Source: a virus. Taken from it: a DNA stretch of 38,335 bases. Each line of letters begins with the position of its first letter. The first letter of the stretch is position 1. Made by a program: the position numbers and the translations under genes. The stretch lies in IMG/VR virus record IMGVR_UViG_3300017998_000006. One strand, written 5' to 3'. This document shows, one piece after another, positions 1 through 38,335 of the stretch. The notes under the pieces were generated by a model. It saw only the letters and a list, made by a program, of their open reading frames with translations. It was not told where the DNA came from and ran no database searches.

Positions 1-123
1 ATACAAGATCCAATTGTTTTTAATACGGGGATTAAAATGACTTGGACATGCGGCGTTACTGCGCGCGTGAGCTTCTCTGGCACCTGTCTGCTGTTCGCGC
101 AAGCATGGTACTACACTGAGAAC
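1..123. repeat. Terminal direct repeat, copy 1 (identical to 38213..38335)
   Basis: atacaagatccaattg...gcatggtactacactgagaac read at both ends of the window, 123/123 identical; signature of a closed circular (or terminally redundant) assembly. Confidence 0.97.
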
Positions 124-126
124 TGA
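1..126 (+). CDS. 3' end (duplicate copy) of the junction-spanning DUF2961-like gene that starts at 36983; stop TGA at 124..126
   Basis: 36983..38335 is 451 codons without stop and ends flush with the repeat; after the repeat the same frame hits tga at 124..126 (C-terminus ...LLFAQAWYYTEN*). Confidence 0.8.
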   Translation: MQDPIVFNTGIKMTWTCGVTARVSFSGTCLLFAQAWYYTEN

Positions 127-133
127 GGCGAAC

Positions 134-670
134 ATGAAACGCTTATTGATCGGATTGATGCTTTGCGGAATGGCCCTGGCACAGACGCCTCCCGCTTCGG
201 TGACGGTTACTGTGAAATATGGAACCGTTCAAAAAATCTGGAACTTCGTCTTCGGGGCGCCATACACCATCACCGATCTGGAGTGTACGCAGCCGCCAGA
301 CGCGCCGGCGCCGGCGCCGGGAAGCACGATGCTGCTGCCAGGGGATTCTTCGACCTGTACCGTGACGATCAACCAAGCAGCCCCGGCCGCCGGACTCCAA
401 ATCCAGGTCACGATTCCATCGCCGCTTACAGGTGGCCCAACAGGCGGCGTACTGACAATCCCTTCCGCTGCAACTACAGGCACGTTCACGGTCACGTATT
501 CAGTGTCCGCGAATGCTCCAACAATCTTCATGGGCGAGGCAGTCGAGATCGTTGGTCCGGTAAGCGATGAGAGCTACCTCTCTCTATTCATCCCCTGTTG
601 CGCGCGCGCGGACCTATGCGGCCTTCCACTTGCCCAGGTGAGCCAGGAGCCATGTGTAGGGGCAGACTGA
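134..670 (+). CDS. Secreted protein with Sec-type signal peptide, function unknown (6th gene of the signal-peptide cassette)
   Basis: GAGG 6 nt before ATG; N-terminus MKRLLIGLMLCGMALAQTPP (basic n-region, hydrophobic core, small-residue site); T/V/P-rich beta-type body; Cys-rich tail FIPCCARADLCG..EPCVG. Confidence 0.7.
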   Translation: MKRLLIGLMLCGMALAQTPPASVTVTVKYGTVQKIWNFVFGAPYTITDLECTQPPDAPAPAPGSTMLLPGDSSTCTVTINQAAPAAGLQIQVTIPSPLTGGPTGGVLTIPSAATTGTFTVTYSVSANAPTIFMGEAVEIVGPVSDESYLSLFIPCCARADLCGLPLAQVSQEPCVGAD

Positions 671-676
671 AGAACC

Positions 677-1078
677 TCAGGCTCGATAGAACCTGAAAGG
701 CCCGATTTCAGCCGTTTGCTTTTCAGCAGTGGCCCAGTCTGGCCGCATGGCAAACGAAGCGCTCTCGTACATCAAAGCACCCCCAGTAGGGTCATCCCCA
801 GGAACATCCACCACCGCACAACAGGCCAACCAGGCACGCCAATCTCCAACATTGCGCCGATCTGGTAGCCGGGCCGCGTTCGGATCTTTCGGGTTGAAAC
901 TCGAGAACTGATACGGCCACAGTATCACCGAGGCCGGATCGCTTCCACGAAAACCAGTGGCCGCGCGATTCAGAATCACGTGGAGTACGGCCCGCTTCGC
1001 ATCGTCCGATTGGCCCCGTGCCTCTCGCCAAAGACAAAGAGCAGCAAGGAAGGGCTGGTAGGAGTCCGCGGCGCCCAT
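677..1078 (-). CDS. SleB-like cell-wall hydrolase (Hydrolase_2 family), probable endolysin
   Basis: LAALCLWREARGQSDDAKRAVLHVILNRA...ILWPYQFSSFNP matches the SleB/CwlJ-type pattern (E-A-R-G-[QE], V-x-x-NR, QFS); last gene of the minus-strand block, directly after a holin-like gene. Confidence 0.85.
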   Translation of the reverse strand: MGAADSYQPFLAALCLWREARGQSDDAKRAVLHVILNRAATGFRGSDPASVILWPYQFSSFNPKDPNAARLPDRRNVGDWRAWLACCAVVDVPGDDPTGGALMYESASFAMRPDWATAEKQTAEIGPFRFYRA

Positions 1079-1353
1079 TACTTCGTCGCCTCAGGCGGAG
1101 CCTGCGTAGTAGTTTTGCTCGTGGTTTCAGTCTGTGAAGACTGCCCGGGCTTGGCATCCCCCGCCTGCTCCGGCAAATGAGAGCCAGACTGCACGCCCAG
1201 TGCATTGTTCAGCGCTGCGATGATGGCCCCGATTATCATCCCCAAGCCAACGCCATATTTCGGTTCCCAAAAGAATGACGCCAGACCGATGATCGCCAAG
1301 ACGCCTAGACACTCTAAAGCGATCCACTGGTTTGAGTTCATTTTGGATGGCAT
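1078..1353 (-). CDS. Holin-like small membrane protein (2 TM + hydrophilic tail)
   Basis: TM1 WIALECLGVLAIIGLASFFW, TM2 GVGLGMIIGAIIAALNNALG, then charged/T-rich tail; TAATG 1-nt overlap with the hydrolase start at 1078. Confidence 0.55.
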   Translation of the reverse strand: MPSKMNSNQWIALECLGVLAIIGLASFFWEPKYGVGLGMIIGAIIAALNNALGVQSGSHLPEQAGDAKPGQSSQTETTSKTTTQAPPEATK

Positions 1354-3554: not shown

Positions 3555-4076
3555 CTAAGCCGTGGCCCACCAGAGTAGCCCCAGCCCCGCCACGGCCAAG
3601 CCAACCCATACCCAGGGGCTTGTGCCCGAATCGCTCGAGAGATCTGGCAGCCCGTCCGTGAGATCCGCCATGATTCTATCCGAGGGTGTCGAATCCACGT
3701 TGATGCTTCCGAGGATGCTGGACGCGTAGGACTGCCCCGCCGCCAGATGTGTAGGCCCGGCATTGTAGGCCGCCAGCGCATCGCTCCAGTTCCCGAACTG
3801 CTGGTACAGCGAAGCCAGCAACGAAACGCCGCCCTCAACGTTCTGGGTGAGATCCGAGGCGTTGACGTTCAGCGCGGTTGCCGTCGCCGGCATGAGCTGG
3901 AAGACGCCAATCTCCCCGGCTGAGCCCACCGCGTTCTGGTTGAAGCTCGACTCCTTTTGCGCTACGGCAACAGCGATTGAAGGCGGTACGCCGAGCTGAT
4001 CCGCTACTGAGGTTATGAGGCTCTGAATGCTTGTGGAAGTCGCCCCGAGTCCCCGCCGCACTGTGCGCCAGTACAT
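3555..4076 (-). CDS. Lytic transglycosylase (SLT domain) with C-terminal membrane anchor
   Basis: AVAQKESSFNQNAVGSAGEIGVFQLMP and ALAAYNAGP = catalytic E-S and AYNAG motifs of family-1 lytic transglycosylases; C-terminal TM WVWVGLAVAGLGLLWWATA; N-terminal leader MYWRTVRRGLG. Confidence 0.85.
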   Translation of the reverse strand: MYWRTVRRGLGATSTSIQSLITSVADQLGVPPSIAVAVAQKESSFNQNAVGSAGEIGVFQLMPATATALNVNASDLTQNVEGGVSLLASLYQQFGNWSDALAAYNAGPTHLAAGQSYASSILGSINVDSTPSDRIMADLTDGLPDLSSDSGTSPWVWVGLAVAGLGLLWWATA

Positions 4077-4623: not shown

Positions 4624-5219
4624 TGGCAGCCCTCCTCACCAGCCGGCAATGGCTCCAGCGTGCCGATGACCAGCTCAACGCGCTGCTGAACTCCCACGAA
4701 TGCGCCGCCAGCATTTAGGTACCCTGCCGTGTTCCAGAGTTCAACCATGAACAGCCCCGAGCCGACGACCGGATAGGGCGCGCAGAGCAGGTTTGGAAAT
4801 GACCCCGCGATCACGAAGACGGCGCTGTAGTACGTCGGCTTGAAATTCGCAAGGAAAAGCGACGGCACCGGCTCATCGAACAGCTTGTGACCCAACGAGG
4901 TGTCCGTGATCTGCACGTTGAACTGAGGCGGGGTGATCGCCGTAAGGCCCGGAGGTAGCTCGCCACCAACTGACCCAACCAACTCCGCCGGCAAATAGAA
5001 TCCGTAAATCAGCGAGCCCGGCGTGATCTTCAGACCGTGCGATACATAGCCATTGGCCGGCATGACTTCACTTGGCGAATCCGGCGACTTGTACAGCCTC
5101 GGCCGGTAGCACAACTCGTCTGCCAACGGCGCCAGTTGCCGGATCGCGGCCGCATCGAACGATCCCCAGGTGTCGCGCGTCAAGGCGTCCAGACTCAGCG
5201 GGCTGATGGGCAGATTCAT
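4620..5219 (-). CDS. Structural-module paralog (1 copy)
   Basis: ATGA overlaps on both sides; FNVQITDTSLGHKLFDEPVPSLFLANF / PYPVVGSGLFMVELWN / RVELVIGTLEP. Confidence 0.55.
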   Translation of the reverse strand: MNLPISPLSLDALTRDTWGSFDAAAIRQLAPLADELCYRPRLYKSPDSPSEVMPANGYVSHGLKITPGSLIYGFYLPAELVGSVGGELPPGLTAITPPQFNVQITDTSLGHKLFDEPVPSLFLANFKPTYYSAVFVIAGSFPNLLCAPYPVVGSGLFMVELWNTAGYLNAGGAFVGVQQRVELVIGTLEPLPAGEEGCQ

Positions 5220-6178
5220 GGCAGCACCTTTACCCCAGTAAGCAACACCGGGAAGTCAAGCGGGGACTGGTTCGCATACGCGCCATCGGCACGCGTGAAA
5301 TCCAGGTACATGAACTGGCTTCGCTGGATGTAAATCTCCGGGTAGAAGAGCCCGGGATTCGACGGCCCGCAGAACTCGGCCAGCAGACCGTTTGTGAGGC
5401 TGCCACACGGGTACGATTCTCCCTGAACTCCAAAACCGTAAGCAGGTTGCCCAAGAGTCCCCTGACCCGGACGTCCAAACAGAATACTCGCATGCACCGG
5501 CAGATTCGAGTATGGCTTACCATCCGAATCACGCAGGGTGATTTCGACCTCGAAATAATCGGCGTTGTTGCCTTGCTGATTGTTGTCCGTGCCAGCCCGC
5601 CCACCCCTGAGAACAAAATCCGCATCGGGCTGCACGATGAAGGGAACGACCATCGGAGCCGTCGTGGTCACAGGCAACTGCAAGGCGATCACGGGATAGC
5701 AGTATGGCCGGATGGGGCCGTGCTGGGCCGCGTACGTAACCCCTTGGCGACTTCCCCATACGTAGAGTTTGACGCCCCGGAAATACAGCCGAACATTCGT
5801 GAGGGTGCCCAGCCCTGCGTTTTCCACGTCCACGTAGATGATGCCACCAGCCGGGTAGATACTCTGCGGGAATACCGGGGTGGGACTCCCCTGTTGACCA
5901 AAACAGTACGAATGCAAGGTTGCTGGAACCCTTTGCTGGCTGACGTAGTTCTCATCCGGCCCCGTGAAACTGGTTTTCAGAAACTGCAAGCCCGCCTGCA
6001 GGTTGCGAATGCCTTCTTGAATGCTCTGCTGTGGCTGCACTCTGAAAGCCCGCGACCGCAGAACAAATGGAGCGTCAAGATCGAGCACCAACGGCACCGC
6101 AGTTCTGATCTCACCAGGCGCGAGGCTCGCAATCCTCAACACGTAGTCCTGATGACGTTCCTGAAAACGAGGGTTCAT
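5216..6178 (-). CDS. Structural-module paralog with two tandem copies (double-jelly-roll-like?)
   Basis: Copy 1: DAPFVLRSRAFRV..YVSQQRVPATL..PQSIYPAGGIIYVDVEN..VRLYFRGVKLY. Copy 2: DADFVLRGGRAG..VEITLRDSDGKPYSNLPVHASILFG..PEIYIQRSQFMYLDF..FPVLLTGVKV. Confidence 0.6.
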   Translation of the reverse strand: MNPRFQERHQDYVLRIASLAPGEIRTAVPLVLDLDAPFVLRSRAFRVQPQQSIQEGIRNLQAGLQFLKTSFTGPDENYVSQQRVPATLHSYCFGQQGSPTPVFPQSIYPAGGIIYVDVENAGLGTLTNVRLYFRGVKLYVWGSRQGVTYAAQHGPIRPYCYPVIALQLPVTTTAPMVVPFIVQPDADFVLRGGRAGTDNNQQGNNADYFEVEITLRDSDGKPYSNLPVHASILFGRPGQGTLGQPAYGFGVQGESYPCGSLTNGLLAEFCGPSNPGLFYPEIYIQRSQFMYLDFTRADGAYANQSPLDFPVLLTGVKVLP

Positions 6179-6672
6179 AAAGCCCCCTCGTAACGCTTCA
6201 GGCCGTACAGCGTGATCTCAGGCAACTGAGCCGTGTTGTTCGGGTCGATGTTTTTGAAGGAGACCAAGATGCCTGACCCAGGGGGGCATTCAATCTCCGG
6301 CTCTATGGGCACCGGAAGACCACCAGCGGCGCTCCCGGACGGGTTGACATACTGAATGACGGGCACGTAGTCCGAGCTGAGCGCGTTTCCAAACGGATCG
6401 AAGAAGCGCACCAACAAGGTCACGGGGATGCCGCCAATACCAACGCCCAGATTCAACCGGACGCCCCGCCAGAGGAACTTCGAGCCGGTCTCAATCGCCA
6501 GGGGAATGTTTTCCTGAGTTGAAAGAACAGCGAGCGGTGAGTAAGCAGCATTGAACAGATCGTAGAAGTAGCTGAACGCCTGCTCCCGGCAGCCTCGTGG
6601 AGATGGATAAAACCACTGGGGCCGATAATCCACGCACCCGAGCACCGGAACGCCGATGAGAGAAGGACTCAT
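6175..6672 (-). CDS. Structural-module paralog (1 copy)
   Basis: SKFLWRGVRLNLG / LLVRFFDPFGNALSSDYVPVIQYV / PEIECPPGSGILVSFKN / LPEITLYGLKRY; ATGA overlaps on both sides. Confidence 0.55.
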   Translation of the reverse strand: MSPSLIGVPVLGCVDYRPQWFYPSPRGCREQAFSYFYDLFNAAYSPLAVLSTQENIPLAIETGSKFLWRGVRLNLGVGIGGIPVTLLVRFFDPFGNALSSDYVPVIQYVNPSGSAAGGLPVPIEPEIECPPGSGILVSFKNIDPNNTAQLPEITLYGLKRYEGAL

Positions 6673-7610
6673 GCTCCCACCTTTCGCCGTTTGACGCCTT
6701 CCACGTAGACTTGCAGGTACATTTGCCCTACGCCGGCGAAGTCCACCAACTGAAGGTCAAAGATGAGCGTGTCTTGGGCTTTCAGCCACCAGTCATGCGC
6801 GTACGGTGCCCCGCCGATGTAGCGAGCCACGTCGATGTAGTCATCCGAAAACACATGCCCTGAAGCCGCGCGGATCCTGGCCAGGATCTCTCCGCCCGTC
6901 ACAGTGGCATCCTGGGTTACGTTGAAATGGAAACGCCGCACCACGAAATCCGAGGCGCTTTCGATGGGAATCTCAATGGTTGCAAACTGCAAGATGTCCG
7001 CTGGACTCGTGAACTGCAAACCCTGGCCGATGACTGGGACCGCAGAGCAGTACGTGAACGGCGAATCCTCGTAGCCAGGTGGTGTCGCGGGGCCTGTGCC
7101 ATGCATCCAGCATGGTGCCAGGATGTTCTGGTTTGGATTGTCCAAATACTGCGGCGGCAGGGGCCCGGCCGCTTCGGAAGGCTTTTGCGACTTGACGTAG
7201 TAGCAGTAGGCCCCTTCGAACAGCATCTGAACGGCAGCGCTCAGCGCCGTCAGCCGAACCTGGATCTTGGACTGAGGCGGACACGGAACCTGTTTCGCCA
7301 TCAGCAGCCGGCCGGAGCCGTAGCCCGCGACCTCCTGCACAAGCTGGGACTGATTCAGGAACGGCTGTCCATTCGGCAGAATCACTTGCCAGTACGGCAC
7401 ATCACCGTTAGCCGAGATCGCGCGCAGCATCCAGGTTGTGTCGCCAGTGATCGTCTTCTCAATCGTCGTCTGGCCGCTTGTGAGATCCAAGCTCTGAAGC
7501 AAAAACGAATGGGGGATATAGACCGCAGACATTCCTCGAGGAGGTGTCGGGCGCCCGCACTTGCTGAGCACCCAATCGGCTTCGAGGATGAGCTGCGAGT
7601 CTTTTTTCAT
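6669..7610 (-). CDS. Structural-module paralog with two tandem copies (double-jelly-roll-like?)
   Basis: Copy 1: TTWMLRAISANG..WQVILPNGQPFLNQSQLVQEVAG..KQVPCPPQSKIQVRL..QMLFEGAYCY. Copy 2: SDFVVRRFHFNV..LARIRAASGHVFSDDYIDVARYIG..WWLKAQDTLIFDLQL..LQVYVEGVKR. Confidence 0.6.
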   Translation of the reverse strand: MKKDSQLILEADWVLSKCGRPTPPRGMSAVYIPHSFLLQSLDLTSGQTTIEKTITGDTTWMLRAISANGDVPYWQVILPNGQPFLNQSQLVQEVAGYGSGRLLMAKQVPCPPQSKIQVRLTALSAAVQMLFEGAYCYYVKSQKPSEAAGPLPPQYLDNPNQNILAPCWMHGTGPATPPGYEDSPFTYCSAVPVIGQGLQFTSPADILQFATIEIPIESASDFVVRRFHFNVTQDATVTGGEILARIRAASGHVFSDDYIDVARYIGGAPYAHDWWLKAQDTLIFDLQLVDFAGVGQMYLQVYVEGVKRRKVGA

Positions 7611-8076: not shown

Positions 8077-8120
8077 CGCGTCCTCCGGTTTGAGAATAAC
8101 ACCAAAACGGGCGGCATGAA

Positions 8121-27386: not shown

Positions 27387-27402
27387 GTTTCTTCGTTTTC
27401 TG

Positions 27403-27921: not shown

Positions 27922-27927
27922 GACCCC

Positions 27928-27957: not shown

Positions 27958-27975
27958 TATTCGTGCAGAATTCTC

Positions 27976-28004: not shown

Positions 28005-28011
28005 TGGAATC

Positions 28012-28523: not shown

Positions 28524-28525
28524 CC

Positions 28526-29943: not shown

Positions 29944-30998
29944 AATCCCCGCAAAACTGGGCCATTTATTGTCTCAAAGATCCACGCACCGGCACAGTTC
30001 GTTATGTCGGCTGGACTTCACAAACACCCACAAGGCGTATGACATGCCATCTTTCAGAAGCACTTCACGAGTCGCGACAAGCACATACATTCAAATCCAG
30101 ATGGATTCGCCTCCTGCTAACCACAGGGGTTCGACCTGTCATGGAAGTTCTGGAAACAGGCATAGGCGATTCCTGGGCATCAGCAGAACAACGGTGGATA
30201 GCATTCTTTCGTGGTAACGGGGCGGCTCTCACAAATGGATCAGACGGAGGAGAAGGCAATTTGGGCTACAGTCCACCGCCAGAGGTTCGAGAGAAGATCT
30301 CACGCGCAAACAAGGGCTGCAAACGTTCGCCTGAGCATATAGCCAAAATGGCAGCAGCGGCTCGGCTGGCAAACACTGGGAGGCACCGTTCGCCGGAAAT
30401 CACAGAAAAAATTGCGAGCCAGCTACGTGGAGTTCCAAGACCTCCTGAAGTGTGGGAAAACTGCCGCAAAGCCTCAAAAGGCCGGATCGTATCAAAAGAA
30501 ACCCGCCAAAAACTCTCCGATTGTCGAAGGGGAAAGCCTCTATCTTTGGAAACTCGGGCGAGAATGAGTGAATCGGCCAAACACAAACCGCCCATGAGTG
30601 CTGAAACTCGCGCTCTCTTATCTGCAAAACTGAAAGGTCGCACATGCGGAACTCCAGAAGGACGTAGGAGCCGAATCGAAAAGATGCGGGGCCGCATAAA
30701 TCCCAAAGCGATAGCCGCCATGATCGCGGCAAACACCGGCTCCAAACACCCACCCGAAACAGCAGCTAAAAATGCGGCAACCCGTGCTAGCTGGCCCCCC
30801 GAATATCGGGCCGAAGTTGGTAGGCGAATCAGCGAGAAGTGCAAAGGCCGAAAACATTCAGCCGAAACACGGGAAAAACTCGCCGCATGGCATCGGGGCC
30901 GTAAAGCTTCTCCAGAAACGCTCATCAGAATGAGCGAATCTGCCAAGCGGAAGAGTTCAGCCAGCAACAACGGGTTGCTGAGCCTGTGGGAGCGCTGA
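29940..30998 (+). CDS. GIY-YIG homing endonuclease with ~10 NUMOD3-type repeats
   Basis: WAIYCLKDPRTGTVRYVGWTS (GIY-x10-YVG), ...AEQRWIAFF..LTNGSDGG; then repeated S/P-x-E-x-R-x-K-h-S-x-x-x-K/R-G units (PEVREKISRANKG, PEHIAKMAAAA, PEITEKIASQLRG, KETRQKLSDCRRG, LETRARMSESAKH, AETRALLSAKLKG, AETREKLAAWHRG, PETLIRMSESAKR). Confidence 0.85.
   Translation: MKSPQNWAIYCLKDPRTGTVRYVGWTSQTPTRRMTCHLSEALHESRQAHTFKSRWIRLLLTTGVRPVMEVLETGIGDSWASAEQRWIAFFRGNGAALTNGSDGGEGNLGYSPPPEVREKISRANKGCKRSPEHIAKMAAAARLANTGRHRSPEITEKIASQLRGVPRPPEVWENCRKASKGRIVSKETRQKLSDCRRGKPLSLETRARMSESAKHKPPMSAETRALLSAKLKGRTCGTPEGRRSRIEKMRGRINPKAIAAMIAANTGSKHPPETAAKNAATRASWPPEYRAEVGRRISEKCKGRKHSAETREKLAAWHRGRKASPETLIRMSESAKRKSSASNNGLLSLWER
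29940..30998 (+). mobile_element. Free-standing homing-endonuclease gene (selfish mobile gene)
   Basis: GIY-YIG/NUMOD3 architecture as in phage Seg/Tev-type endonucleases; its 3' 39 nt are duplicated 281 nt downstream. Confidence 0.5.
30960..30998 (+). repeat. 39-nt direct repeat, copy 1 (3' end of the endonuclease gene)
   Basis: gccagcaacaacgggttgctgagcctgtgggagcgctga; 36/39 identical to 31241..31279, with the last 27 nt perfect. Confidence 0.9.
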
Positions 30999-31279
30999 TG
31001 AACTCCACCGAAGCAGAAATGGCTCTTGACGATATCCAAAGAGTTCTTGGAGTTGCCAAACGGGTCATCGCAGCGCAGTTATCCCGACGAGCAGCAACCT
31101 GCACACCCACCTGTAACGCCAATCTCGTACCCGGCATGGCACACAATTGCGCACTGGGAGTGCGGGTACGGGAAATTGTGGACCGCCTAGTGTGGGAGAC
31201 ACCAGCGGCAAGACGTGAAATAGAAGATGTTTTAATTTCCGCCAGCAACTCAGGGTTGCTGAGCCTGTGGGAGCGCTGA
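30998..31279 (+). CDS. Hypothetical protein sharing its last 12 residues with the endonuclease
   Basis: TGATG-coupled; MNSTEAEMALDD...; C-terminus ASNSGLLSLWER* versus ASNNGLLSLWER* in 29940..30998. Confidence 0.6.
   Translation: MNSTEAEMALDDIQRVLGVAKRVIAAQLSRRAATCTPTCNANLVPGMAHNCALGVRVREIVDRLVWETPAARREIEDVLISASNSGLLSLWER
31241..31279 (+). repeat. 39-nt direct repeat, copy 2
   Basis: gccagcaactcagggttgctgagcctgtgggagcgctga. Confidence 0.9.
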
Positions 31280-31281
31280 AC

Positions 31282-31506
31282 ATGGCACAGACCAAGACGC
31301 GAAGCGAAGAGGTCCGAAAGATCATCAAGGCATTGCTGGAAGCCGGAGACGCCAGCGCAGCCGCATCAAGCACCGGCAATCCGGCTGAACTCAACAAGGC
31401 GGAGCGCCAAACTGACCGGGCGATCACCAAGGCCTACAGGTTCATGACGGGCGAAGACCCGCCGACTGGCGACCTCGTGGAATTCGTCTACGGAGAGCCA
31501 GAATGA
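31282..31506 (+). CDS. Hypothetical small protein
   Basis: ATG 2 nt after the previous stop; MAQTKTRSEEVRKIIKALLEAGD... Confidence 0.55.
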   Translation: MAQTKTRSEEVRKIIKALLEAGDASAAASSTGNPAELNKAERQTDRAITKAYRFMTGEDPPTGDLVEFVYGEPE

Positions 31507-31682
31507 ACAGCTTTCAGTACGCCATAGCCAAAGCCGCTTGGGAAGCCTCCTACGAAGCCAACCACGAGGACGAGTTCGCAGGCTTTGACGATCTCAGCCC
31601 GAAAAGACAACGCGCATGGCTTGCGGCTGCCATCGCAGCGCTTGAAAAAGCTGCCGAATACGCCGCTGGAAGGTCCCAATGA
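31503..31682 (+). CDS. 59-aa protein (below the ORF-track cutoff), N-terminal paralog of 31679..31900
   Basis: Hand translation MNSFQYAIAKAAWEASYEANHEDEFAGFDDLSPKRQRAWLAAAIAALEKAAEYAAGRSQ*; ATGA-coupled at both ends. Confidence 0.55.
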   Translation: MNSFQYAIAKAAWEASYEANHEDEFAGFDDLSPKRQRAWLAAAIAALEKAAEYAAGRSQ

Positions 31683-31900
31683 ACAGTTTTCAGTACGCCA
31701 TAGCCAAAGCCGCGGAAGCATTTGAAAACGAGTTTCTGATCCGGCTGGCCGCCACCTGGTTAAAGTGCCGATGGTGGATCATGGGACACCGGCTGTACGG
31801 AGGCCCCTACGACCTTCCAGGAACGCTGTTGGCGATGGAGGACTATGCCGCCGAAATGCGCCTCCTGTGCGCTGAAATCAAGGTGCGCCCTCATGTATGA
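31679..31900 (+). CDS. Hypothetical small protein, same first 12 residues as 31503..31682
   Basis: MNSFQYAIAKAAEAFENEF...; the first 35 nt are 34/35 identical to 31503..31537. Confidence 0.6.
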   Translation: MNSFQYAIAKAAEAFENEFLIRLAATWLKCRWWIMGHRLYGGPYDLPGTLLAMEDYAAEMRLLCAEIKVRPHV

Positions 31901-32066
31901 GCCCGACAAGTGCCCGCACTGCGGCAAGCGCGCCATGCCCGCAATACGCCCCGAGAGCAAGGCCACTGCGAGACGTTGCCAAGAGTGCGGGTACGTTGAA
32001 GACTTCCGACAAGGAGCAAACTTTGAAACCAGAGAAAACGCTGCTAATGGAAATTCTCAGAGATGA
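31893..32066 (+). CDS. Zinc-ribbon small protein
   Basis: MYEPDKCPHCGKRA...RRCQECGYVEDF; the start overlaps the previous stop. Confidence 0.55.
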   Translation: MYEPDKCPHCGKRAMPAIRPESKATARRCQECGYVEDFRQGANFETRENAANGNSQR

Positions 32067-32235
32067 AATTCGAGCGAAACTACCGAGTTTCACTCGATTG
32101 TGTAACCAAGACGCTCCGCCGACCATCCTGATGCACCAAGACACCTTCGGGATCAGCGACGAAGAGATGTTGCTACTCGGGAAAGCCATCAAATACGGTG
32201 GTAGCCACGGCAAGACCATAACGGTGATTCCATGA
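32047..32235 (+). CDS. Hypothetical small protein
   Basis: In-frame ATG of ORF 31897..32235 (MEILRDEIRAKLPSF...); the upstream part of that ORF overlaps the zinc-ribbon gene. Confidence 0.45.
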   Translation: MEILRDEIRAKLPSFTRLCNQDAPPTILMHQDTFGISDEEMLLLGKAIKYGGSHGKTITVIP

Positions 32236-32600
32236 GCCGTCTTTTAAGGGTGACCTACCGCGCCACCTTCCAGCAGCCCAAACAGGGTCCGCTAAATCTG
32301 ATGGGCTGCCGCATGCTCATCGCGTGGTACGCCGAAGTCTACCAGGCCACCAAAGAACGCTGGTCGGCCCGCACACCTTTGGATAAGCCCGACACGCCCA
32401 AAAACGAGCCGTGGCCACTCCAACACGGCGCCACAGCCGAGCAGATGCGCCTGAACGTCGCCGAAGCCTTCGAAACGCAACTGACGCCCTGGGAAATGTG
32501 GGGCAACCCCGGCACAAAAATGGACTCAGCCCGTCTTTTACAGCCCGAAGAGGTTGAGATCCGAGAGAATGGACAAGTCTACTTCAAGGAGCCAAAATAA
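32232..32600 (+). CDS. Hypothetical protein
   Basis: ATGA-coupled; 122 aa. Confidence 0.65.
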   Translation: MSRLLRVTYRATFQQPKQGPLNLMGCRMLIAWYAEVYQATKERWSARTPLDKPDTPKNEPWPLQHGATAEQMRLNVAEAFETQLTPWEMWGNPGTKMDSARLLQPEEVEIRENGQVYFKEPK

Positions 32601-33493
32601 TGGACCGCAGAGAGATTTTGAACGAACTACAGCAGATCGTCGCCATCACGGACACCGTAGGTTCAGACTACGGCATTCCAGAAGTCGCCCGCCGCGCCAA
32701 GAGTCTAATCCAGGTGGTCGAATCCTGGCCAATAGCCTTCCCGCCGGCCCCGTTTGTCAGCGATCAATGCGCCGAAAGACACCACTGCAAATGTCAAACA
32801 GAGCATGAATGCCACTGCTCCTGCCACGACCGGTGTGGCCGAGGCCCAGAAGCCCCACAGCAGCCCGCTGAACCCGCGCTTCCCACCGTGCCCAAGCCGT
32901 TCGCAGCATGGCGAAAGGAGCAGGAAGCCGCCTACGAACCTGGCTCTGACGCCAGCGCAGCCAGCGGACCGGCCGCCCGCCACATCGACACCCCAGACGA
33001 GCTGCTGGAACTCCTGGCCGGCGTATCCAGTGATCCCCAAGTAGAAGGGCTCAGCTTGGCGCAGAAGGCATCTACCATGGCACTGCTGCACATTGCCAAG
33101 ACTTTGCCGCAAATCTCGTACCAGCTCGAAGACATCGACACCGCACTGGAACAGATTGGCATACCGATAGACAATGGGGCCAAGACGCTGGAGCAGCTCG
33201 CCGAGATGCAGCGCACGGCTATGGATTACCTAATGGACAAGAGCGTTGCCGCAACCGCACCGCAGCCAATGCGAATCTATGTCAAACGCTCCCGCAGACG
33301 CGCTGCCGAAGCCTGCACAAGCGCACGAGCGGCCGAGGCGAACGAAATGGCCCGCAAGATCGTTGCAGAAATCGAGGTTGTGTCACCAGAAGACGAAGCC
33401 GAAAAAACAGTCAGAATCGCCCTCATGCTTCGCCGCTGGCGGTACGGAGATGATGCGAAAGAATCCCCCACCAGCCCCCAGAAGCCGAGCTAA
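32600..33493 (+). CDS. Hypothetical protein with Cys/His cluster
   Basis: TAATG-coupled; CAERHHCKCQTEHECHCSCHDRCG; acidic helical C-half. Confidence 0.65.
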   Translation: MDRREILNELQQIVAITDTVGSDYGIPEVARRAKSLIQVVESWPIAFPPAPFVSDQCAERHHCKCQTEHECHCSCHDRCGRGPEAPQQPAEPALPTVPKPFAAWRKEQEAAYEPGSDASAASGPAARHIDTPDELLELLAGVSSDPQVEGLSLAQKASTMALLHIAKTLPQISYQLEDIDTALEQIGIPIDNGAKTLEQLAEMQRTAMDYLMDKSVAATAPQPMRIYVKRSRRRAAEACTSARAAEANEMARKIVAEIEVVSPEDEAEKTVRIALMLRRWRYGDDAKESPTSPQKPS

Positions 33494-33513
33494 AGCGCAC
33501 AGGGAGGCCAGTC

Positions 33514-33774
33514 ATGGGCGATCTGCTACAGTTCGAGAAGCGTAAGGCCGGCCGGCCCAGGCTCTCACCACCAATCGTGCACAGCGACTCGCTATGCTCC
33601 TGTGGCCAGCCAAAGCCTCCCCTTGCCCGGGCCTGCCGGGAATGCTCTTGGCGAGATGAGCAGATCTTCGCGCGGCTGGACAGAGCCACCAGAACCGGCC
33701 GGCAATTGGCCAGGCGGGCCGAATATCTCATCCAAAACGGCAAGGAAGAACTGCTCGAGCAGGAATTCCGCTGA
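33514..33774 (+). CDS. Small Cys4 protein with basic N-terminus (possible regulator)
   Basis: GGGAGG 8 nt before ATG; KRKAGRPRLSPP; LCSCGQP...ACRECSW; last gene before the signal-peptide cassette. Confidence 0.55.
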   Translation: MGDLLQFEKRKAGRPRLSPPIVHSDSLCSCGQPKPPLARACRECSWRDEQIFARLDRATRTGRQLARRAEYLIQNGKEELLEQEFR

Positions 33775-33805
33775 TGAAGCCCCTTTCAGGCGTATACTTA
33801 TAGCC

Positions 33806-34690
33806 ATGAGACCTAAACTCTTGGCCTTGCTCCTCTCCCTTGGCAGCCTTGCAGCCTACGGCCAAGCTCCCGACTGCCAATTCACCCAAACCTTCACCGC
33901 GACCGGCTACGGCGTCACCGCGTCCAACCAGGCCGTGGCAAACCTCGGAACGCAATGCGTCACCTGGCGGCTCTCCTACTACGCCGACAACATGACGGCC
34001 CTTTCAATCCAGATCGAAGGCGCACCAGACTCTGCCGGCTCTCCTGGAACGTTCTCAGCCGTGCCCACCACCGCATGCTCGAGCACCGTGCAGCCACCAT
34101 GTATGCTTGACGGCGCGAACCCATTGACGGATATCAACCACAATACTGAAGCGTTCCGCGGATACTACGCATGGATCGCTTTACACGTTACAGTTTTCAC
34201 GTCTCCCGGCTCCGGCGAGATCACCGCCCGCATGTACGGGTACAAAGGCACGTCCTCAGCCAGCGTAATAGGGGGAGGCGGTGGCGTACCAGTAATCCCC
34301 TGTATCGGCACTCCTGGCGCGACCGCAGGTGCTTACCTTCAGCAGTGCCAGACCACTGCTGGAGCAATCTATGCGTGCAACAACCCTGCGAATTGCACGG
34401 TGGCTGTTGACTGGGTCACCGGCTCAGCCACCGTCAGCAAAGCCTCTACAACGGTTACCTTAGGGCCAATCGTTGACGGAGGCTGCGCCGAGACGCCCGT
34501 CTTCAATTTTGCCGGCATTTTGGCCGGCGACACGGTTTTTGCCGGGACCACCTCGACAGGAATGCCCGCCAGCGTGACGGTGGCCGCCAAGGTGGTTTCT
34601 AACAATGTTGTCGCTGTTGATGTTTGCAATCTCAGCGGCGGAATTTACACGGTTTCAAACGCGACCTTCACGGTCGCTATGGCAAAATAG
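33806..34690 (+). CDS. Secreted protein (signal peptide) with C-terminal CNLSGG-type domain
   Basis: MRPKLLALLLSLGSLAAYGQAP; no SD, but TATACT lies 7 nt before ATG; C-domain LGPIVDGGCAE..GDTVFAG..VAVDVCNLSGG..ATFTV is paralogous to 34703..35605. Confidence 0.65.
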   Translation: MRPKLLALLLSLGSLAAYGQAPDCQFTQTFTATGYGVTASNQAVANLGTQCVTWRLSYYADNMTALSIQIEGAPDSAGSPGTFSAVPTTACSSTVQPPCMLDGANPLTDINHNTEAFRGYYAWIALHVTVFTSPGSGEITARMYGYKGTSSASVIGGGGGVPVIPCIGTPGATAGAYLQQCQTTAGAIYACNNPANCTVAVDWVTGSATVSKASTTVTLGPIVDGGCAETPVFNFAGILAGDTVFAGTTSTGMPASVTVAAKVVSNNVVAVDVCNLSGGIYTVSNATFTVAMAK

Positions 34691-34702
34691 GAGAATTTTA
34701 AA

Positions 34703-35605
34703 ATGAAACGCTTGGTTCTATTCGCAGTTTGCAGTCTCACGCTGTTCGCTCAAGCTCCCGTGCAACGCTATACCTCTATTCTCAACGAGGGAGCGACCGG
34801 AACAACCGTTGCCACAATCACATCCCTGACTGGGGCTCCTTCCAAGGCCATCAAGACCACCGTCGGCTGCGCCGGCATCGTCGGCGTCACCGTGGGAGGG
34901 GCCGGCATCACCGGCAGCGCGATTATCGCCACCAATGGGAATGCCTCCATCGTTTTCGACGGGAACACCGTAGCCGGAGATTATTTCACCTGTTCGGGAA
35001 CCGTCGCGGGCAACGCTCACGATACCGGATCCAGTACCTATCCGACAGGTGGTTGGGTGGGAGGAATCGTGCTCACGACGAATGCCGGGACTGGCACGTA
35101 TGCCGCGGTTCTATTTCCTCAGCAGGCGCTCGCCGGAGCCAATGTCGCATTGAGCAATCTCGTCAGCCCGGTGGTTAGCCAGACATTGGAATTTGCCGCC
35201 ACCAAAAGCGTGGGCGATACGACGGCACCCCCTCAGTATCTCTATTTTTACGGGGCTGGAACGCAGGGATCCGATTCTTTCGAGTTCATCGGAACACCAT
35301 CCGGGAATCAGCAGATCACCATTTCTGGATCCGGAACAATAGGGTTCCGGCTGATCGGAACAGCTACTATTACACCCGGATCGCTGGTGGACGGTGCCTG
35401 CGCGGATCAATCCCCCACGGTTGCGCTCACCGGTGCCGTCGCCGGAGATCCGGCCGTGATAGGCGCTCCGTCTACGCTTGCGGCGGGGTTATACGCCCTA
35501 GGAGTGACGACCGCCACCAACACGATTACAGTTCGGCTGTGCAACCTGAGCGGAGGTACGCTTACGCCAGCCAGTGGCACATACACGGCAACTATTGTGC
35601 ATTAA
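34703..35605 (+). CDS. Secreted protein (signal peptide) with C-terminal CNLSGG-type domain
   Basis: AGGAGA 11 nt before ATG; MKRLVLFAVCSLTLFAQAP; C-domain PGSLVDGACAD..GDPAVIG..ITVRLCNLSGG..GTYTATI. Confidence 0.7.
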   Translation: MKRLVLFAVCSLTLFAQAPVQRYTSILNEGATGTTVATITSLTGAPSKAIKTTVGCAGIVGVTVGGAGITGSAIIATNGNASIVFDGNTVAGDYFTCSGTVAGNAHDTGSSTYPTGGWVGGIVLTTNAGTGTYAAVLFPQQALAGANVALSNLVSPVVSQTLEFAATKSVGDTTAPPQYLYFYGAGTQGSDSFEFIGTPSGNQQITISGSGTIGFRLIGTATITPGSLVDGACADQSPTVALTGAVAGDPAVIGAPSTLAAGLYALGVTTATNTITVRLCNLSGGTLTPASGTYTATIVH

Positions 35606-35633
35606 GCCGCGCATCCCACGACAGGAAACACTC

Positions 35634-36734
35634 ATGAAAACAGTCATCAGCGGGGCTCTCCTAGCGGTTTCTCTCGCAATGACGGCAGACTGGTTGTGCG
35701 CTCAGGACCCCGTTCTCCGGCAGCCCAGCCCAAGCATCGCAACCGATACCGCCTCTCTCGGGCCAGAACTGACCACTAGCGGGAGTTGCAACGGAACAGG
35801 CTGGACAGGGACTTACCCGAATTACATTGCGCCAGGCACCTCCGCCGCGTTGACTTGCACCGGCTTTGCGAGTGGCCAGTTTTACCAGACGGTGACTTCC
35901 ATTGGGGCCGGTGGCTCTGGGGGCGTTACCGTCGCAATCGGAACTGCCCAAACCGTTTACGAAACAAGTGGAATCGTCACGGCGGGCCTGAAGGCCAATG
36001 GCACGGCATTGACGTACACGCCAGATTCTACCTACACGGGGACGATTGGAATAAGTGCAAAGCTAATAACGCCGATTTCAACCTTTTCTTACGTCGGACG
36101 GGATTCGACGAACGCTGTCTCTACCCAGTTTCTCCGGCAGACACTTGCATCGTTGGTGAACGACTTCGGAGACGACAGCGGGGCTTACTGTACGACTTGC
36201 AGCTACAACTCGAACAGCGGCGCTCAGGGACTGTTCAGTATCACCACGGGCAGCGCTAACACGAACAGCGGCTTTCAAGGGATGGCCAGTCTCACCACGG
36301 GTAACGCTAACACAAATAGTGGCCTTCAAGGGATGTTGAGCCTCACCACGGGAATCCTCAACACGAACAGCGGCTATCAAGGGATGGCCGGTCTCACCAC
36401 GGGAAGCTTCAACAGTGCTCTGGGCTATCAGGCTGGTCGATACGTCACGGGAGGTTCTGTCGCAAACCAAACCAGTTCGTACTCTCTGTATTTAGGCATA
36501 AACACCATGGCTAAAACAGACGGGGACACGAATGAGCTTGTGCTGGGATACAACGCAACCGGGGCAGGATCAAACACCGCCGTAATTGGCAATGGATCGG
36601 TTACGGACGTGTATTTCGGGAGCGCCACGCCGGCGGCCACGCTTCATTCGTCGAGCATCGCCTTGACTGGAGCCTCTTTCACCTTGAACGGTAAAACATG
36701 CACCATCGTAGGCACGGCAATTTCTTGTATCTAG
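35634..36734 (+). CDS. Secreted fibre/adhesin-like protein with YadA-head-like (Hep_Hag-type) repeats
   Basis: MKTVISGALLAVSLAMTADWLCAQDP; NSGAQGLFSITTGSANT / NSGFQGMASLTTGNANT / NSGLQGMLSLTTGILNT / NSGYQGMAGLTTGSFNS / ALGYQAG..; later SNTAVIGNGS. Confidence 0.65.
   Translation: MKTVISGALLAVSLAMTADWLCAQDPVLRQPSPSIATDTASLGPELTTSGSCNGTGWTGTYPNYIAPGTSAALTCTGFASGQFYQTVTSIGAGGSGGVTVAIGTAQTVYETSGIVTAGLKANGTALTYTPDSTYTGTIGISAKLITPISTFSYVGRDSTNAVSTQFLRQTLASLVNDFGDDSGAYCTTCSYNSNSGAQGLFSITTGSANTNSGFQGMASLTTGNANTNSGLQGMLSLTTGILNTNSGYQGMAGLTTGSFNSALGYQAGRYVTGGSVANQTSSYSLYLGINTMAKTDGDTNELVLGYNATGAGSNTAVIGNGSVTDVYFGSATPAATLHSSSIALTGASFTLNGKTCTIVGTAISCI
36213..36416 (+). repeat. 4 x 51-nt tandem coding repeat (17-aa units)
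   Basis: aacagcggcNNtcaRggRatg...ctcaccacgggNa..c..aacac units start at 36213, 36264, 36315 and 36366. Confidence 0.9.
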
Positions 36735-36743
36735 GAGATTTTA

Positions 36744-36983
36744 ATGGGCAAAACACCAATTCTCGTGTTCGTCGGACTAATGCTCTTCGCAGTAGAGCCG
36801 AAACCGAAGCCTCCAACAGTTGAGGAATTGCAGACTCAGGTGACGCAACTCCAAGCGCAGATCTCGCAGAAGAACCAGCAGATAGCGGCGATGCAGGCCA
36901 ATATCGTAGCGAGCCAAAAGATGTTTGGCGCGTGCTTCCAAAGTCTGGCAGAAGCGGAACAGCGTGCCGCAGAAAGAAAATAA
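36744..36983 (+). CDS. Small anchored/secreted coiled-coil protein
   Basis: AGGAGA 7 nt before ATG; MGKTPILVFVGLMLFAV; LQTQVTQLQAQISQKNQQIAAMQ. Confidence 0.6.
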   Translation: MGKTPILVFVGLMLFAVEPKPKPPTVEELQTQVTQLQAQISQKNQQIAAMQANIVASQKMFGACFQSLAEAEQRAAERK

Positions 36984-38335
36984 TGAAACGCGTTCTCCCC
37001 CTGGTTTATCTCGCAGTGGCCGCAGGATGGTTATGTGCTCAGAATCCCGTAGTTCGGAGCAACATCGGGGCACATCTGGCGTGTCCAGCAGCTTCCAGTT
37101 CAGGTACCACTTACACCTGTGCCACTTCTCCGACCTTCACCCCAGCCGCAAACGACTGCGTTCTGCTGGTGGCGGATGTCGCCAGTGGCGCATCGCCCAC
37201 CCTGGCAGTCAACGGCGCTGCGGCTCTCGGAATCACGAAGCAGCAGAACGGCGCGGCGCTTGTGGCCAACGATCTGTTAGCCAACGGTCGAGTTCTGGTC
37301 TGCATGGATGCCGCTTCGCATTGGCAGATGCAGGGACAAACCGGAAACGCGGCGAGTGGCGGAGTTACTAGCATCAATGGCCTTACTGGGGCCGTGGCGC
37401 AACAGCAGATCACAGACATCTTCTCATCGAGCAAACCCGCAGGTGTCATGGGTACGTATTACGGCAGTCAGACTCTAGGCGCAGGCGCGACGGGAACTCT
37501 ACTCGCTACTGTAACCGGATCTGGATATGTGAGCGAGATATTTGTCGCGGTGAACCAAAGCCCCATCGCAATCACCGTCACAGTGGATGGAGAAGCCACT
37601 CCGTCAATTTCCGCATATAGCGTTCAGACGTTCTTAGGAGATGGGCTGTGTGACATAAGCCCATCTTGGGGAGGAAAGTGGATACGTGGCGGAAATAACG
37701 GAGCCAACAACTGCGGCGGGCTGTTCCGCATCCCAATCCCATTCTCTTCGTCGATTCTCATCCAGGCCAAGAATAATTCCGCCAACACTGTTGGCATCGC
37801 AAGCTATGTGGTGTATCACACCGGGATCACCGACAACTGGATATATACGCAAAGGCTTTACAACTCCGAAGCTTACGTTGCAGGGATGGCCGAGGACACA
37901 GAGGGGACTATTCTGGATGTGACCCCCAACAAGCGTGGCCGGTTGGTGGGAGTCGGCTGGATTTACGATGGGGCTCCCGGCGGCGCTAGCCCATCGACAG
38001 GACCGCTAGAAGGCCCATTCAAGATCTATATTGATGGATCTGGAACCGCAGCTTACAGAACTTCAGGGAGCGAAGATTTCTTTGGAATGCCCTGGTACTT
38101 CCAGCATCTTAATAACTTTGGCTCGGGATACAATACCACCCTTGCCCCTTCGTCGGAAGATATCGCACTGACGTTTGATGCGCCACCCACCTTCGGTGCA
38201 CAGCGCTTTTTTATACAAGATCCAATTGTTTTTAATACGGGGATTAAAATGACTTGGACATGCGGCGTTACTGCGCGCGTGAGCTTCTCTGGCACCTGTC
38301 TGCTGTTCGCGCAAGCATGGTACTACACTGAGAAC
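36983..38335 (+). CDS. Secreted protein with C-terminal DUF2961/GH172-like beta-jelly-roll domain (spans the circular junction; stop at 124..126)
   Basis: MKRVLPLVYLAVAAGWLCAQNP; ITVTVDGEATPS, FRIPIPFSSSILIQAKNNS, GRLVGVGW..LEGPFKIYIDGSG..TSGSEDFFG, QRFFIQDPIVFNTGIKMTW, AQAWYY follow the DUF2961 motif order as I recall it. Confidence 0.65.
   Translation, partial: MKRVLPLVYLAVAAGWLCAQNPVVRSNIGAHLACPAASSSGTTYTCATSPTFTPAANDCVLLVADVASGASPTLAVNGAAALGITKQQNGAALVANDLLANGRVLVCMDAASHWQMQGQTGNAASGGVTSINGLTGAVAQQQITDIFSSSKPAGVMGTYYGSQTLGAGATGTLLATVTGSGYVSEIFVAVNQSPIAITVTVDGEATPSISAYSVQTFLGDGLCDISPSWGGKWIRGGNNGANNCGGLFRIPIPFSSSILIQAKNNSANTVGIASYVVYHTGITDNWIYTQRLYNSEAYVAGMAEDTEGTILDVTPNKRGRLVGVGWIYDGAPGGASPSTGPLEGPFKIYIDGSGTAAYRTSGSEDFFGMPWYFQHLNNFGSGYNTTLAPSSEDIALTFDAPPTFGAQRFFIQDPIVFNTGIKMTWTCGVTARVSFSGTCLLFAQAWYYTEN
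38213..38335. repeat. Terminal direct repeat, copy 2 (identical to 1..123)
   Basis: See 1..123. Confidence 0.97.

Follow-up and report, generated by a model that had tools for sequence, protein, structure and literature searches.

The stretch of DNA analysed here, referred to as the window, is the whole 38,335-nucleotide IMG/VR virus record IMGVR_UViG_3300017998_000006, a virus-like genome that encodes an array of predicted jelly-roll proteins and in which no DNA-packaging motor could be recognised. Positions 1-123 are identical to positions 38213-38335 (repeat family D2), and because of this overlap the genome is taken as complete, circular or terminally redundant, with a length of 38,212 bp. 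The G+C content is ~58%, and neither tRNA genes (tRNA scan) nor Rfam families (Rfam scan) were found in the window. Genes are arranged in four blocks: a leftward late block of 20 kb (20162 down to 677), a rightward block (20301-24755), a short leftward block containing an initiator-like gene (24867-27615) and a rightward block (27898-36983) that runs on over the junction into 134-670. Scans for sigma-70 promoters and intrinsic terminators gave a signal no better than that of shuffled sequence. A protein 100% identical to the 521-amino-acid (aa) product of 20301-21866 (p521) was retrieved from 57 blocks of the contig collection, on at least 27 contigs, the longest of which measure 38.4-38.6 kb and come from several samples; one and the same virus has thus come out of repeated assemblies at one size.

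Structures were predicted with AlphaFold2 (AF2) and then compared by Foldseek for two proteins of the late block, of 320 aa and 238 aa. The model of the 320-aa protein, built on a 60-sequence alignment, reached a predicted local distance difference test (pLDDT) value of 84 and a predicted template-modelling score (pTM) of 0.87, and consists of two barrels of seven to eight strands. Against the PDB it gave 27 matches at E ≤ 1e-3, almost all of them double-jelly-roll (DJR) capsid proteins or GH172/DUF2961 proteins. The best was the major capsid protein (MCP) of STIV (E 3.4e-6, probability 1.0), followed by the GH172 structures 4kq7 and 8ah3 (E ~7e-6); the capsid proteins of SGIV, phiCjT23, PRD1 (P3) and PR772 also fell within the threshold, those of PBCV-1 and Melbournevirus standing just above it. 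No sequence-level link to DJR capsid proteins was found by Pfam and PDB-profile searches. A preliminary description of the window, made by reading its letters, had recognised no HK97 capsid and had offered a 238-aa protein as the best capsid candidate; this account has to be revised in that a recognisable capsid-type fold is predicted here, the 320-aa protein being a predicted double jelly roll.

The two halves of the 320-aa family are homologous to each other in profile-profile comparison (probability 81-91%, E down to 5e-7), and the family of the adjacent 165-aa protein matches both of them (hhalign probability 99%, E ~1e-17) as well as each half of the 313-aa family (hhalign probability 96-99%). 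Judged by these alignments, one jelly-roll module occurs five times in three adjacent genes in the arrangement 2+1+2 (313-, 165- and 320-aa proteins), and the beta-modules that had earlier been noticed as repeated are true paralogues. The jelly-roll fold of the 313- and 165-aa copies is predicted because they are homologous to the modelled 320-aa protein, while the 238-, 199- and 180-aa families showed no detectable kinship to the module in profile-profile comparison. Among the 320-aa family members P0389, P0396, P0398, P0401, P0404, P0405, P0409, P0421 and P0304, some are ~390-500 aa long and show three matched stretches, which suggests three modules. P0304 has 736 aa, with He_PIG immunoglobulin-like (Ig-like) domains N-terminal to its two-barrel part, and a Pfam scan of the most distant and longest family members returned nothing except He_PIG in one. 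Given the three-stretch members and this fusion, module number and decorations appear to vary over the lineage.

The 238-aa protein, previously proposed as a capsid candidate whose structure should be predicted, was modelled on a 56-sequence alignment as a beta-sandwich of about eight strands (pLDDT 77, pTM 0.74). Weak PDB matches included PNGase F, the SGIV and PBCV-1 capsids, SPV1, P23-77 VP17, small plant and insect virus capsids and TNF/C1q domains, and the best BFVD match (E 4e-4) was to uncharacterised proteins. The predicted fold is jelly-roll-like, with no close structural relative. Together with the Arg-rich protein, whose gene lies directly upstream wherever both are covered, the 238-aa protein is one of the two best-conserved proteins in the loci compared.

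A six-frame regular-expression scan of the window for the Walker-A motif ([AG]xxxxGK[ST]) found three strings. Two of them (14869+, 10333-) fall in frames that are antisense or non-coding; the remaining one, ARPSVGKT at 8546, belongs to a doubtful N-terminal extension of a 158-aa basic protein and was dropped as a P-loop. No credible reading frame is left, as had been stated for the coding open reading frames (ORFs), and the two near-misses quoted at that time (AKAKKSGKQ in 25421-26572 and LSEEGKT in 13754-15286) were found as given. Pfam, PHROGs and NCBIfam scans of ~45 proteins, every ORF of enzyme size included, returned no match to a terminase, portal, HK97 capsid, tail, polymerase, integrase, helicase or ATPase, again in agreement with the preliminary description; the sole tail-type match, of a tape measure PHROG to a 121-aa coiled-coil protein (E 0.024), is at chance level. 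Solid profile assignments were limited to SLT, SleB-type Hydrolase_2, GT2, FkbM methyltransferase, DUF968/HNH and a NUMOD3 homing endonuclease, and weak but coherent ones to an HNH-like zinc domain (13754-15286), a phage-O-like initiator (25421-26572) and a transglutaminase-like core (19038-20162). Single-sequence searches found no such similarity for the three proteins in which a divergent large terminase subunit, portal or ATPase had been thought conceivable (20301-21866, 13754-15286 and 32600-33493), and family profiles of the 521-aa and 510-aa proteins gave just coiled-coil noise and the HNH-like zinc-domain match. Sequence profiles of nine family alignments, compared with all PDB chains, produced noise or coiled-coil matches only. 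The window encodes no nucleoside triphosphatase (NTPase) of any kind, and everything named beforehand as able to overturn the absence of a motor and of tailed-phage genes (terminase, portal, HK97 capsid, tail, an overlooked P-loop) was looked for with a negative outcome.

Relatives were assembled as 35 loci, totalling 605 kb, from IMG/VR, JGI, ENA, Logan and NCBI, and all their ORFs were searched with hidden Markov models of ten window families. In the portions examined, which for the early regions means about a dozen relatives, no P-loop packaging enzyme was found. When ORFs of at least 100 aa were scanned for Walker A, the one credible P-loop protein of a viral locus was that of an early-region gene of L033 (13557-15848; IMGVR_UViG_3300032893_000124). 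In its 763 aa it joins an SNF2-like helicase to an N6/N4 DNA methylase, and the gene is probably an accessory one with an anti-restriction role, not one for a packaging enzyme. Precomputed Pfam annotations of the neighbours listed only SLT, HNH, GerE, He_PIG, radical SAM, DNA methylase, PAPS reductase, DUF968 and GT2, and no ATPase. Since 35 loci lack a packaging P-loop enzyme, the missing motor is, as far as sampled, a property of the lineage and not an accident of one genome. We know of no other bacterial virus of ~38 kb without a DNA-packaging motor.

The gene order in these loci is invariant and reads p521 (divergent), transglutaminase-like peptidase ... p510 C-domain ... Arg-rich - 238 - 313 - 165 - 320 - 199 - 180, p510 being the 510-aa protein; the ten genes keep this order in every locus covering the region, the most divergent relatives included. 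The window belongs to a large metagenomic family: more than 260 homologues were found for the 238-aa protein and more than 156 for the 320-aa protein, whose family comprises 300 clusters at 50% identity among 1.84 billion representatives in an exhaustive profile search, and long contigs carrying the 238- or 320-aa gene are mostly 33-45 kb in size. No match was obtained among GenBank phages (megablast of 25 kb; tblastn of the 320-aa and 238-aa proteins) or among the 72,556 plasmids of PLSDB (tblastn of the initiator-like and 238-aa proteins), Pfam gave no partition, conjugation/type IV secretion or relaxase genes in the window, and literature searches turned up no description of the lineage. 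The only matches in GTDB were 41-43 kb contigs binned in a Phycisphaerales and a Terriglobia metagenome-assembled genome, which are probably the virus itself. We consider the group previously undescribed and widespread in soil and peat, with bacterial hosts that are probably Gram-negative.

In this lineage the lack of a motor goes together with unusually many protamine-like proteins, one being membrane-anchored. The Arg-rich protein (9882-10754), noted early on as basic, has a computed isoelectric point (pI) of 12.0; its low-complexity, protamine-like N-terminus of ~140 aa varies in length, its Gly/Ala-rich, hydrophobic C-domain of ~130 aa is strongly conserved, and the whole looks like a membrane-embedded protein with a DNA-binding tail. 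Three small basic proteins are encoded near it (12970-13365, 8121-8597 and 7795-8124), the pI of the basic proteins overall being 11.3-12.0. About ten membrane proteins are found in the late operon, and ~7 late proteins besides SLT are C-terminally anchored, close to the eight anchors counted before (hydropathy scan plus two C-termini by eye: six anchors pass the hydropathy threshold, those of 8662-8976 and of SLT were called by eye only). The SLT protein, present in relatives too, ends in WVWVGLAVAGLGLLWWATA. The product of the first late gene (19038-20162), formerly listed as protease-like, is transglutaminase-like, with Cys116, His151 and Asp167 invariant in 6 relatives, a weak TG2 match at the catalytic Cys in the PDB profile search, an S/T-rich linker and a C-terminal transmembrane segment (TM) at 353-371; we read it as a putative membrane-anchored papain-fold peptidase, perhaps one that cleaves cell-wall peptides as NlpC/P60-type enzymes do. 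The lysis genes already recognised in the sequence are borne out as a SleB-type hydrolase by Pfam and a two-TM holin-like protein by the TM scan.

Two otherwise different late basic proteins have in common a 119-nt repeat, 80% identical (8124-8242 and 13057-13175), which encodes a 40-aa basic module, NPRKVxGxSTTLRNMASVTIxKLPNGVVKITGRKMxGKR, 88% identical. The Arg-rich protein, too, contains 'NP' with basic residues behind it, as does the 510-aa protein where its conserved domain begins; this may be a processing or binding motif.

We lean, with modest confidence, towards reading these genomes as those of jelly-roll viruses that form a new lineage, have no tail, probably contain a membrane and enclose their DNA by condensation and co-assembly; the candidate non-tailed lineage of the preliminary description is thereby supported, by the predicted double jelly roll of the 320-aa protein and by the negative hallmark searches. 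The virion type, the internal membrane, the icosahedral shape and packaging without a motor are what we infer from these results. The jelly-roll proteins would form a tailless shell over a host-derived lipid membrane, and the 38-kb circular DNA would be condensed against the inside of a patch of viral membrane. The three small basic proteins would take part in this, as would the Arg-rich protein, embedded in the membrane, with its protamine-like tail; shell and membrane would then assemble around the nucleoprotein, and no DNA would be pumped into a preformed capsid. At entry, two wall-degrading enzymes of the viral membrane (SLT and the peptidase) would open the peptidoglycan; replication would rely on a winged-helix-type initiator and the host replisome, and the holin-like protein and the SleB-type hydrolase would free the progeny.

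Several observations weigh against this reading. Despite their good E-values, the structural matches of the 320-aa model have global TM-scores of only ~0.25 and a root-mean-square deviation of 17-20 Å: in the model, the local barrel architecture fits DJR capsids and the overall superposition does not, and the mutual arrangement of the two barrels may differ from that of a true capsid DJR. For the 238-aa model, no PDB match reached significance (best E 0.017). In the loci compared, the jelly-roll array, at 25-40% identity, is conserved less well than the 238-aa and Arg-rich proteins, and the N-terminal He_PIG domains of one 320-aa family member (P0304) would be compatible with a spike or adhesin as well. 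Particle shape, membrane and DNA condensation are deduced from genes, and a host motor or one without a P-loop could do the packaging. To our knowledge, co-assembly around 38 kb of double-stranded DNA (dsDNA) is without bacterial precedent. DJR viruses that lack a motor, such as the Odin group, are moreover among the smallest genomes of the DJR supergroup (PMC5894146).

Among known systems, the window is closest to PRD1, STIV and PM2 (Tectiviridae, Turriviridae and Corticoviridae; Bamfordvirae), with which its gene inventory shares a predicted DJR protein matching STIV MCP, PRD1/PR772 P3, PBCV-1 Vp54 and SGIV MCP, a candidate single-jelly-roll partner, many small membrane proteins and a lysis cassette. 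A DJR protein with a single-jelly-roll partner mirrors P3 and P31 of PRD1, the membrane-anchored lytic transglycosylase resembles PRD1 P7, and a circular genome is found in PM2 and STIV. The window differs from these viruses in its size (38 kb vs. their 10-18 kb), in its two distinct two-module proteins, whose halves are still homologous mutually and to the single-module protein, in its Arg-rich nucleoprotein-like proteins, in the absence of sequence similarity to the isolates, in the low TM-scores and above all in lacking an FtsK/HerA packaging ATPase, for which Walker-A and profile searches of the window and the 35 loci were negative. A candidate DJR-type capsid without packaging ATPase is also the situation in the Odin group and Finnlakeviridae (FLiP, phiCjT23), and Foldseek matched the 320-aa model to the phiCjT23 capsid, among others; Odin group viruses and FLiP are thought to assemble around their genome (PMC5894146). 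Their genomes, however, are much smaller, with FLiP being single-stranded, whereas the present lineage has 33-45 kb and many membrane and basic proteins.

SPV1 (Portogloboviridae) has a circular genome and is not known to encode a packaging ATPase; its icosahedral shell of single-jelly-roll proteins covers a membrane, inside which lies a nucleoprotein core with dsDNA. The 238-aa model weakly and non-significantly matched its chain 6oj0_Z (E 0.07), PDB 6oj0 being the SPV1 cryo-EM structure, but SPV1 is a ~20 kb virus of an archaeal hyperthermophile without sequence similarity to the window, and DJR proteins are not reported from it. The Helvetiavirae (Sphaerolipoviridae, Simuloviridae, Matshushitaviridae: SH1, P23-77) likewise have several separate jelly-roll shell proteins over an internal membrane, and VP17 of P23-77 is a weak match of the 238-aa model; they possess, however, a packaging ATPase and two single-jelly-roll MCPs, whereas the window has single- and two-module versions of one module. 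Cellular GH172/DUF2961 proteins supply the second and third structural matches of the 320-aa model, but no Pfam DUF2961 match was obtained, and the 320-aa gene lies in a conserved viral late operon beside paralogous modules and not in a sugar-utilisation setting. No hallmark of Caudoviricetes (terminase; portal and HK97 MCP; tail genes) was detected, both modelled proteins being predicted jelly rolls. An assignment to Bamfordvirae is not secured, the DJR comparison having given good E-values with low TM-scores and the search for the ATPase a negative outcome. The genome probably belongs in the neighbourhood of the PRD1/STIV-type architectural class and not beyond every known one, and by analogy the element would work most like a PRD1/STIV-type virion with SPV1-like or Odin-like encapsidation without a motor.

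The same jelly-roll virion could be filled in another way, its DNA being pumped into a procapsid by an FtsK-like host translocase or by an unrecognisable viral enzyme without a P-loop, which we hold to be possible if rather unlikely. It would agree with the rule that DJR viruses above ~10 kb otherwise all use an FtsK/HerA-type packaging ATPase (PMC5894146), and p521 and the C-domain of the 510-aa protein, both large, universally conserved and without an assigned role, would be the candidates for such an enzyme. Neither, however, has Walker A/B motifs or ATPase similarity in Pfam, PHROGs, NCBIfam or PDB-profile searches, and the abundant protamine-like proteins speak for condensation. We also know of no virus that borrows a host packaging motor, which counts against this explanation. 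The particle might instead not be icosahedral at all, the jelly rolls being spikes or receptor binders on a pleomorphic or enveloped vesicle of plasmavirus or pleolipovirus style, or on a membrane-wrapped nucleoprotein. This would suit the many membrane proteins, the membrane-anchored Arg-rich protein, the lack of an encoded ATPase, the faster evolution of the jelly-roll array, the Ig-domain fusion, the family members with three matched stretches and the TNF/C1q-like folds among the matches of the 238-aa model. We nonetheless find it improbable, since the best matches of the 320-aa model are DJR capsids and GH172 and not fibre knobs, the 2+1+2 array is universal and collinear, as expected for shell components, and the pairing of a double with a single jelly roll recalls P3/P31 of PRD1.

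A circular map, a block of signal-peptide-like proteins and the absence of hallmark virus genes by sequence would also be compatible with a plasmid or another non-encapsidated mobile element encoding envelope or secreted proteins, but this seems very improbable to us in view of the missing partition, conjugation and relaxase genes, the lack of a match in 72,556 plasmids, the lysis cassette, SLT and capsid-type jelly rolls, the size tightly held at 33-45 kb across distant relatives and the presence of members in IMG/VR. Even less credence can be given to a highly divergent tailed phage with undetected terminase, portal and HK97 capsid: genome size and long late operon do resemble a siphovirus layout, yet the large terminase subunit is a P-loop ATPase and no Walker A occurs in any coding frame, no head or tail matches were found in PHROGs or Pfam, and the two most informative structural proteins are predicted jelly rolls and not HK97 folds.

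Virus megataxonomy recognises one of the two great dsDNA virus groups by its pairing of a DJR capsid protein with an FtsK/HerA ATPase, and known exceptions are very small; the genomes described here represent a large, widespread and unclassified lineage without this defining hallmark of its nearest architectural class. If the preferred reading of tailless jelly-roll viruses assembling around condensed DNA is true, encapsidation without a motor scales to phage-sized dsDNA genomes in bacteria, and a group of family or order level would be added to the sparse catalogue of non-tailed phages. As far as profile alignments can tell, single and double versions of one jelly-roll module are recognisable in one genome, which would offer a sequence-level example of duplication from single to double jelly roll and bears on the debated origin of the DJR fold, from fused viral single jelly rolls or from a captured cellular GH172-like protein. 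The genomes carry almost no marker used by profile-based virus finders, for which they are a blind spot. A bolder proposal, which we advance tentatively and regard as doubtful, is that of a deep branch of bacterial dsDNA viruses, at class or kingdom level, in which ~38 kb would be enclosed without any NTPase by a jelly-roll shell and a membrane around protamine-condensed DNA, and which would also preserve a living intermediate of capsid evolution, with one single and two derived double jelly-roll genes side by side.

Table 1. Features of the window, in order of position (strand as on the stretch analysed).
Feature	Position	Strand	Basis
Terminal overlap	1-123	none	Identity to 38213-38335
Fourth signal-peptide-like gene, across genome junction	134-670		Read from sequence
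SleB-type cell-wall hydrolase	677-1078	-	Pfam Hydrolase_2 E 5e-10
Holin-like protein, 91 aa, two TM	1078-1353	-	TM scan
Lytic transglycosylase (SLT) with hydrophobic C-terminal tail	3555-4076	-	Pfam SLT E 5e-23
Two conserved core proteins, 199 aa and 180 aa	4081-5219	-	Family profiles; collinear core
320-aa double-jelly-roll-like protein, candidate capsomer	5216-6178	-	AF2, Foldseek, homologous halves
165-aa protein, one module; candidate penton/single-jelly-roll partner	6175-6672	-	hhalign; core gene
313-aa protein, two predicted jelly-roll modules	6669-7610	-	hhalign; core gene
Basic protein	7795-8124	-	Composition
Basic protein, pI 11.6	8121-8597	-	Composition
104-aa C-terminally anchored protein	8662-8976	-	Anchor by eye
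238-aa jelly-roll-like beta-sandwich, candidate capsid/shell protein	9073-9789	-	AF2, Foldseek, homologues
Arg-rich protein, proposed membrane-tethered DNA condenser	9882-10754	-	Composition, conservation
162-aa N-terminally anchored protein	10786-11274	-	TM scan, relatives
Two-domain glycosyltransferase within structural block	11474-12970	-	Pfam GT2 E 3e-7; PHROG 1574 E 4e-17; PHROG 14945
Very basic 131-aa protein, pI 11.3	12970-13365	-	Composition; 40-aa module common with 8121-8597 (D3)
130-aa protein, two N-terminal TM and coiled coil	13362-13754	-	TM scan
510-aa protein, N-terminal HNH-like zinc domain and C-terminal core domain	13754-15286	-	Profiles, relatives
Six small genes	15283-17312	-	TM scan; gene calls in identical contigs L016/L017
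330-aa protein, T/P-rich linker, C-terminal anchor	17309-18301	-	TM scan
Cys-rich membrane protein, internal and C-terminal TM; conserved	18298-19041	-	TM scan, relatives
Transglutaminase-like (papain-fold) cysteine peptidase, putative; first late gene	19038-20162	-	Pfam Transglut_core E 0.026; core gene
521-aa conserved protein (p521), divergent from late block	20301-21866	+	Profiles, relatives
FkbM methyltransferase	23614-24243		Pfam/PHROGs/NCBIfam scans
Candidate replication initiator, 383 aa, phage-O-like	25421-26572	-	PHROG 391 E 0.011 (weak)
131-aa paralogue of initiator N-terminal domain	26584-26979	-	BLASTP 39% identity, E 4e-21
DUF968/HNH-type nuclease	27898-28338	+	Profiles; in distant relatives too
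Homing endonuclease, NUMOD3 repeats, GIY-YIG-like N-terminus by eye	29940-30998	+	Profiles; repeat D8
Three T/G/A-rich proteins, signal-peptide-like N-termini	33602-36734	+	Read from sequence; repeat D1

The remaining features of the genome are collected in Table 1. In p521, a conserved N-domain (GSGRYRL) is followed by a coiled coil and then by a P/Q-rich tail; its 17-sequence profile matched no Pfam family and, in the PDB, only designed coiled coils, and no test run gave support for a terminase or portal. The C-terminal ~180 aa of the 510-aa protein (RNP...FHG...GGDQ...EPEGIRN) are conserved in all relatives covered, while its HNH domain is a separate gene in relative L009 (7158-8120 and 18128-18910) and absent from the orthologues in L007 and L005; on this comparison the 510-aa protein is a fusion, and HNH a mobile domain that has repeatedly joined a core protein. 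A longer alternative start (13754-15559, 601 aa) was dropped, as gene calls in identical contigs favour 510 aa. This HNH domain or the DUF968 HNH nuclease could process replicated DNA where a terminase is lacking.

In the upstream part of the late block, the start of 17309-18301 was moved to an ATG overlapping the upstream stop codon. Three of the small late genes encode a C-terminal TM (16489-16872, 15582-15884 and 15283-15579), and the product of 16869-17312 has an N-terminal TM, called by eye, and TTPA repeats. The T/P-rich and TTPA linkers of these neighbouring membrane proteins (17309-18301 and 16869-17312) are typical of O-glycosylation sites. Since the late glycosyltransferase, which has homologues in several relatives, sits among such linker proteins, virus-encoded glycosylation of virion proteins is suggested.

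Three of the related loci stand out. At the end of a 536-kb contig (L011 9568-11238, ENA ERZ25039590), cellular genes (an LpxK/KdtA fusion, NAPRTase and PPIase) directly adjoin fragments of the jelly-roll array: a 165-like gene of which the C-terminal part is left, a 320-like gene that is intact (299 aa) and a 199-like gene reduced to its N-terminal part. The host, if this is a provirus in decay, may be Gram-negative; alternatively, the contig may be chimeric. Locus L003 (1-9000 of a 71-kb contig) has a 238-aa gene identical to that of L002, a contig of the same study, and the same downstream gene order, although several of the downstream genes are truncated in L003; upstream of its Arg-rich gene lie unrelated PIN, DUF4279 and CLC channel genes. 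Either the element is integrated here, with the junction falling within the late operon, or the assembly is chimeric. Neither tRNA nor integrase was found at the L011 and L003 junctions. The divergent relative L026 (IMGVR_UViG_3300037116_000081) lies on an 85.9-kb contig, about twice the usual length, which could comprise a provirus together with host DNA or else be a lineage member of larger size.

In the short leftward block, the 131-aa paralogue encoded directly upstream of the candidate initiator may be a truncated regulator or competitor of initiation. The four T/G/A-rich proteins (33602-36734 and 134-670) have predicted Sec-type N-termini (...LFAQAP, ...AYGQAP, ...LCAQDP and ...MALAQTP). 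Two of the four have a common C-terminal domain (33% identity, E 6e-9), and one contains at least 4 tandem units of 51 nt (17 aa) at 36207-36410. They are not conserved in the examined portions of the relatives, and could be receptor-binding proteins or morons of the lysogenic-conversion type.

In the 37.8-kb IMG/VR relative L012 the homing endonuclease gene is missing, and of it only the '...LLSLWER' end is retained. In the window, this gene and the next one finish in copies of a 43-nt direct repeat (30956-30998 and 31237-31279; 91% identical), consistent with a recent homing insertion that duplicated the 3' end of its target. A 21-nt repeat, GTGGTGGACCTCACGGGAGAA, is present at 21834-21854, 22301-22321, 22576-22596 and 22767-22787, at the 3' ends of four consecutive early genes before the next start, and carries a GGAG-type ribosome-binding site. 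The C-termini it encodes are VVDLTGE in the first three, near-identical copies and VANLIGE in the fourth, degenerate one; a docking peptide was considered for VVDLTGE and dropped, as the termini stem from the junction repeat with the ribosome-binding site of the next gene, and the repeat looks like a duplicated gene-junction or translational-coupling cassette.

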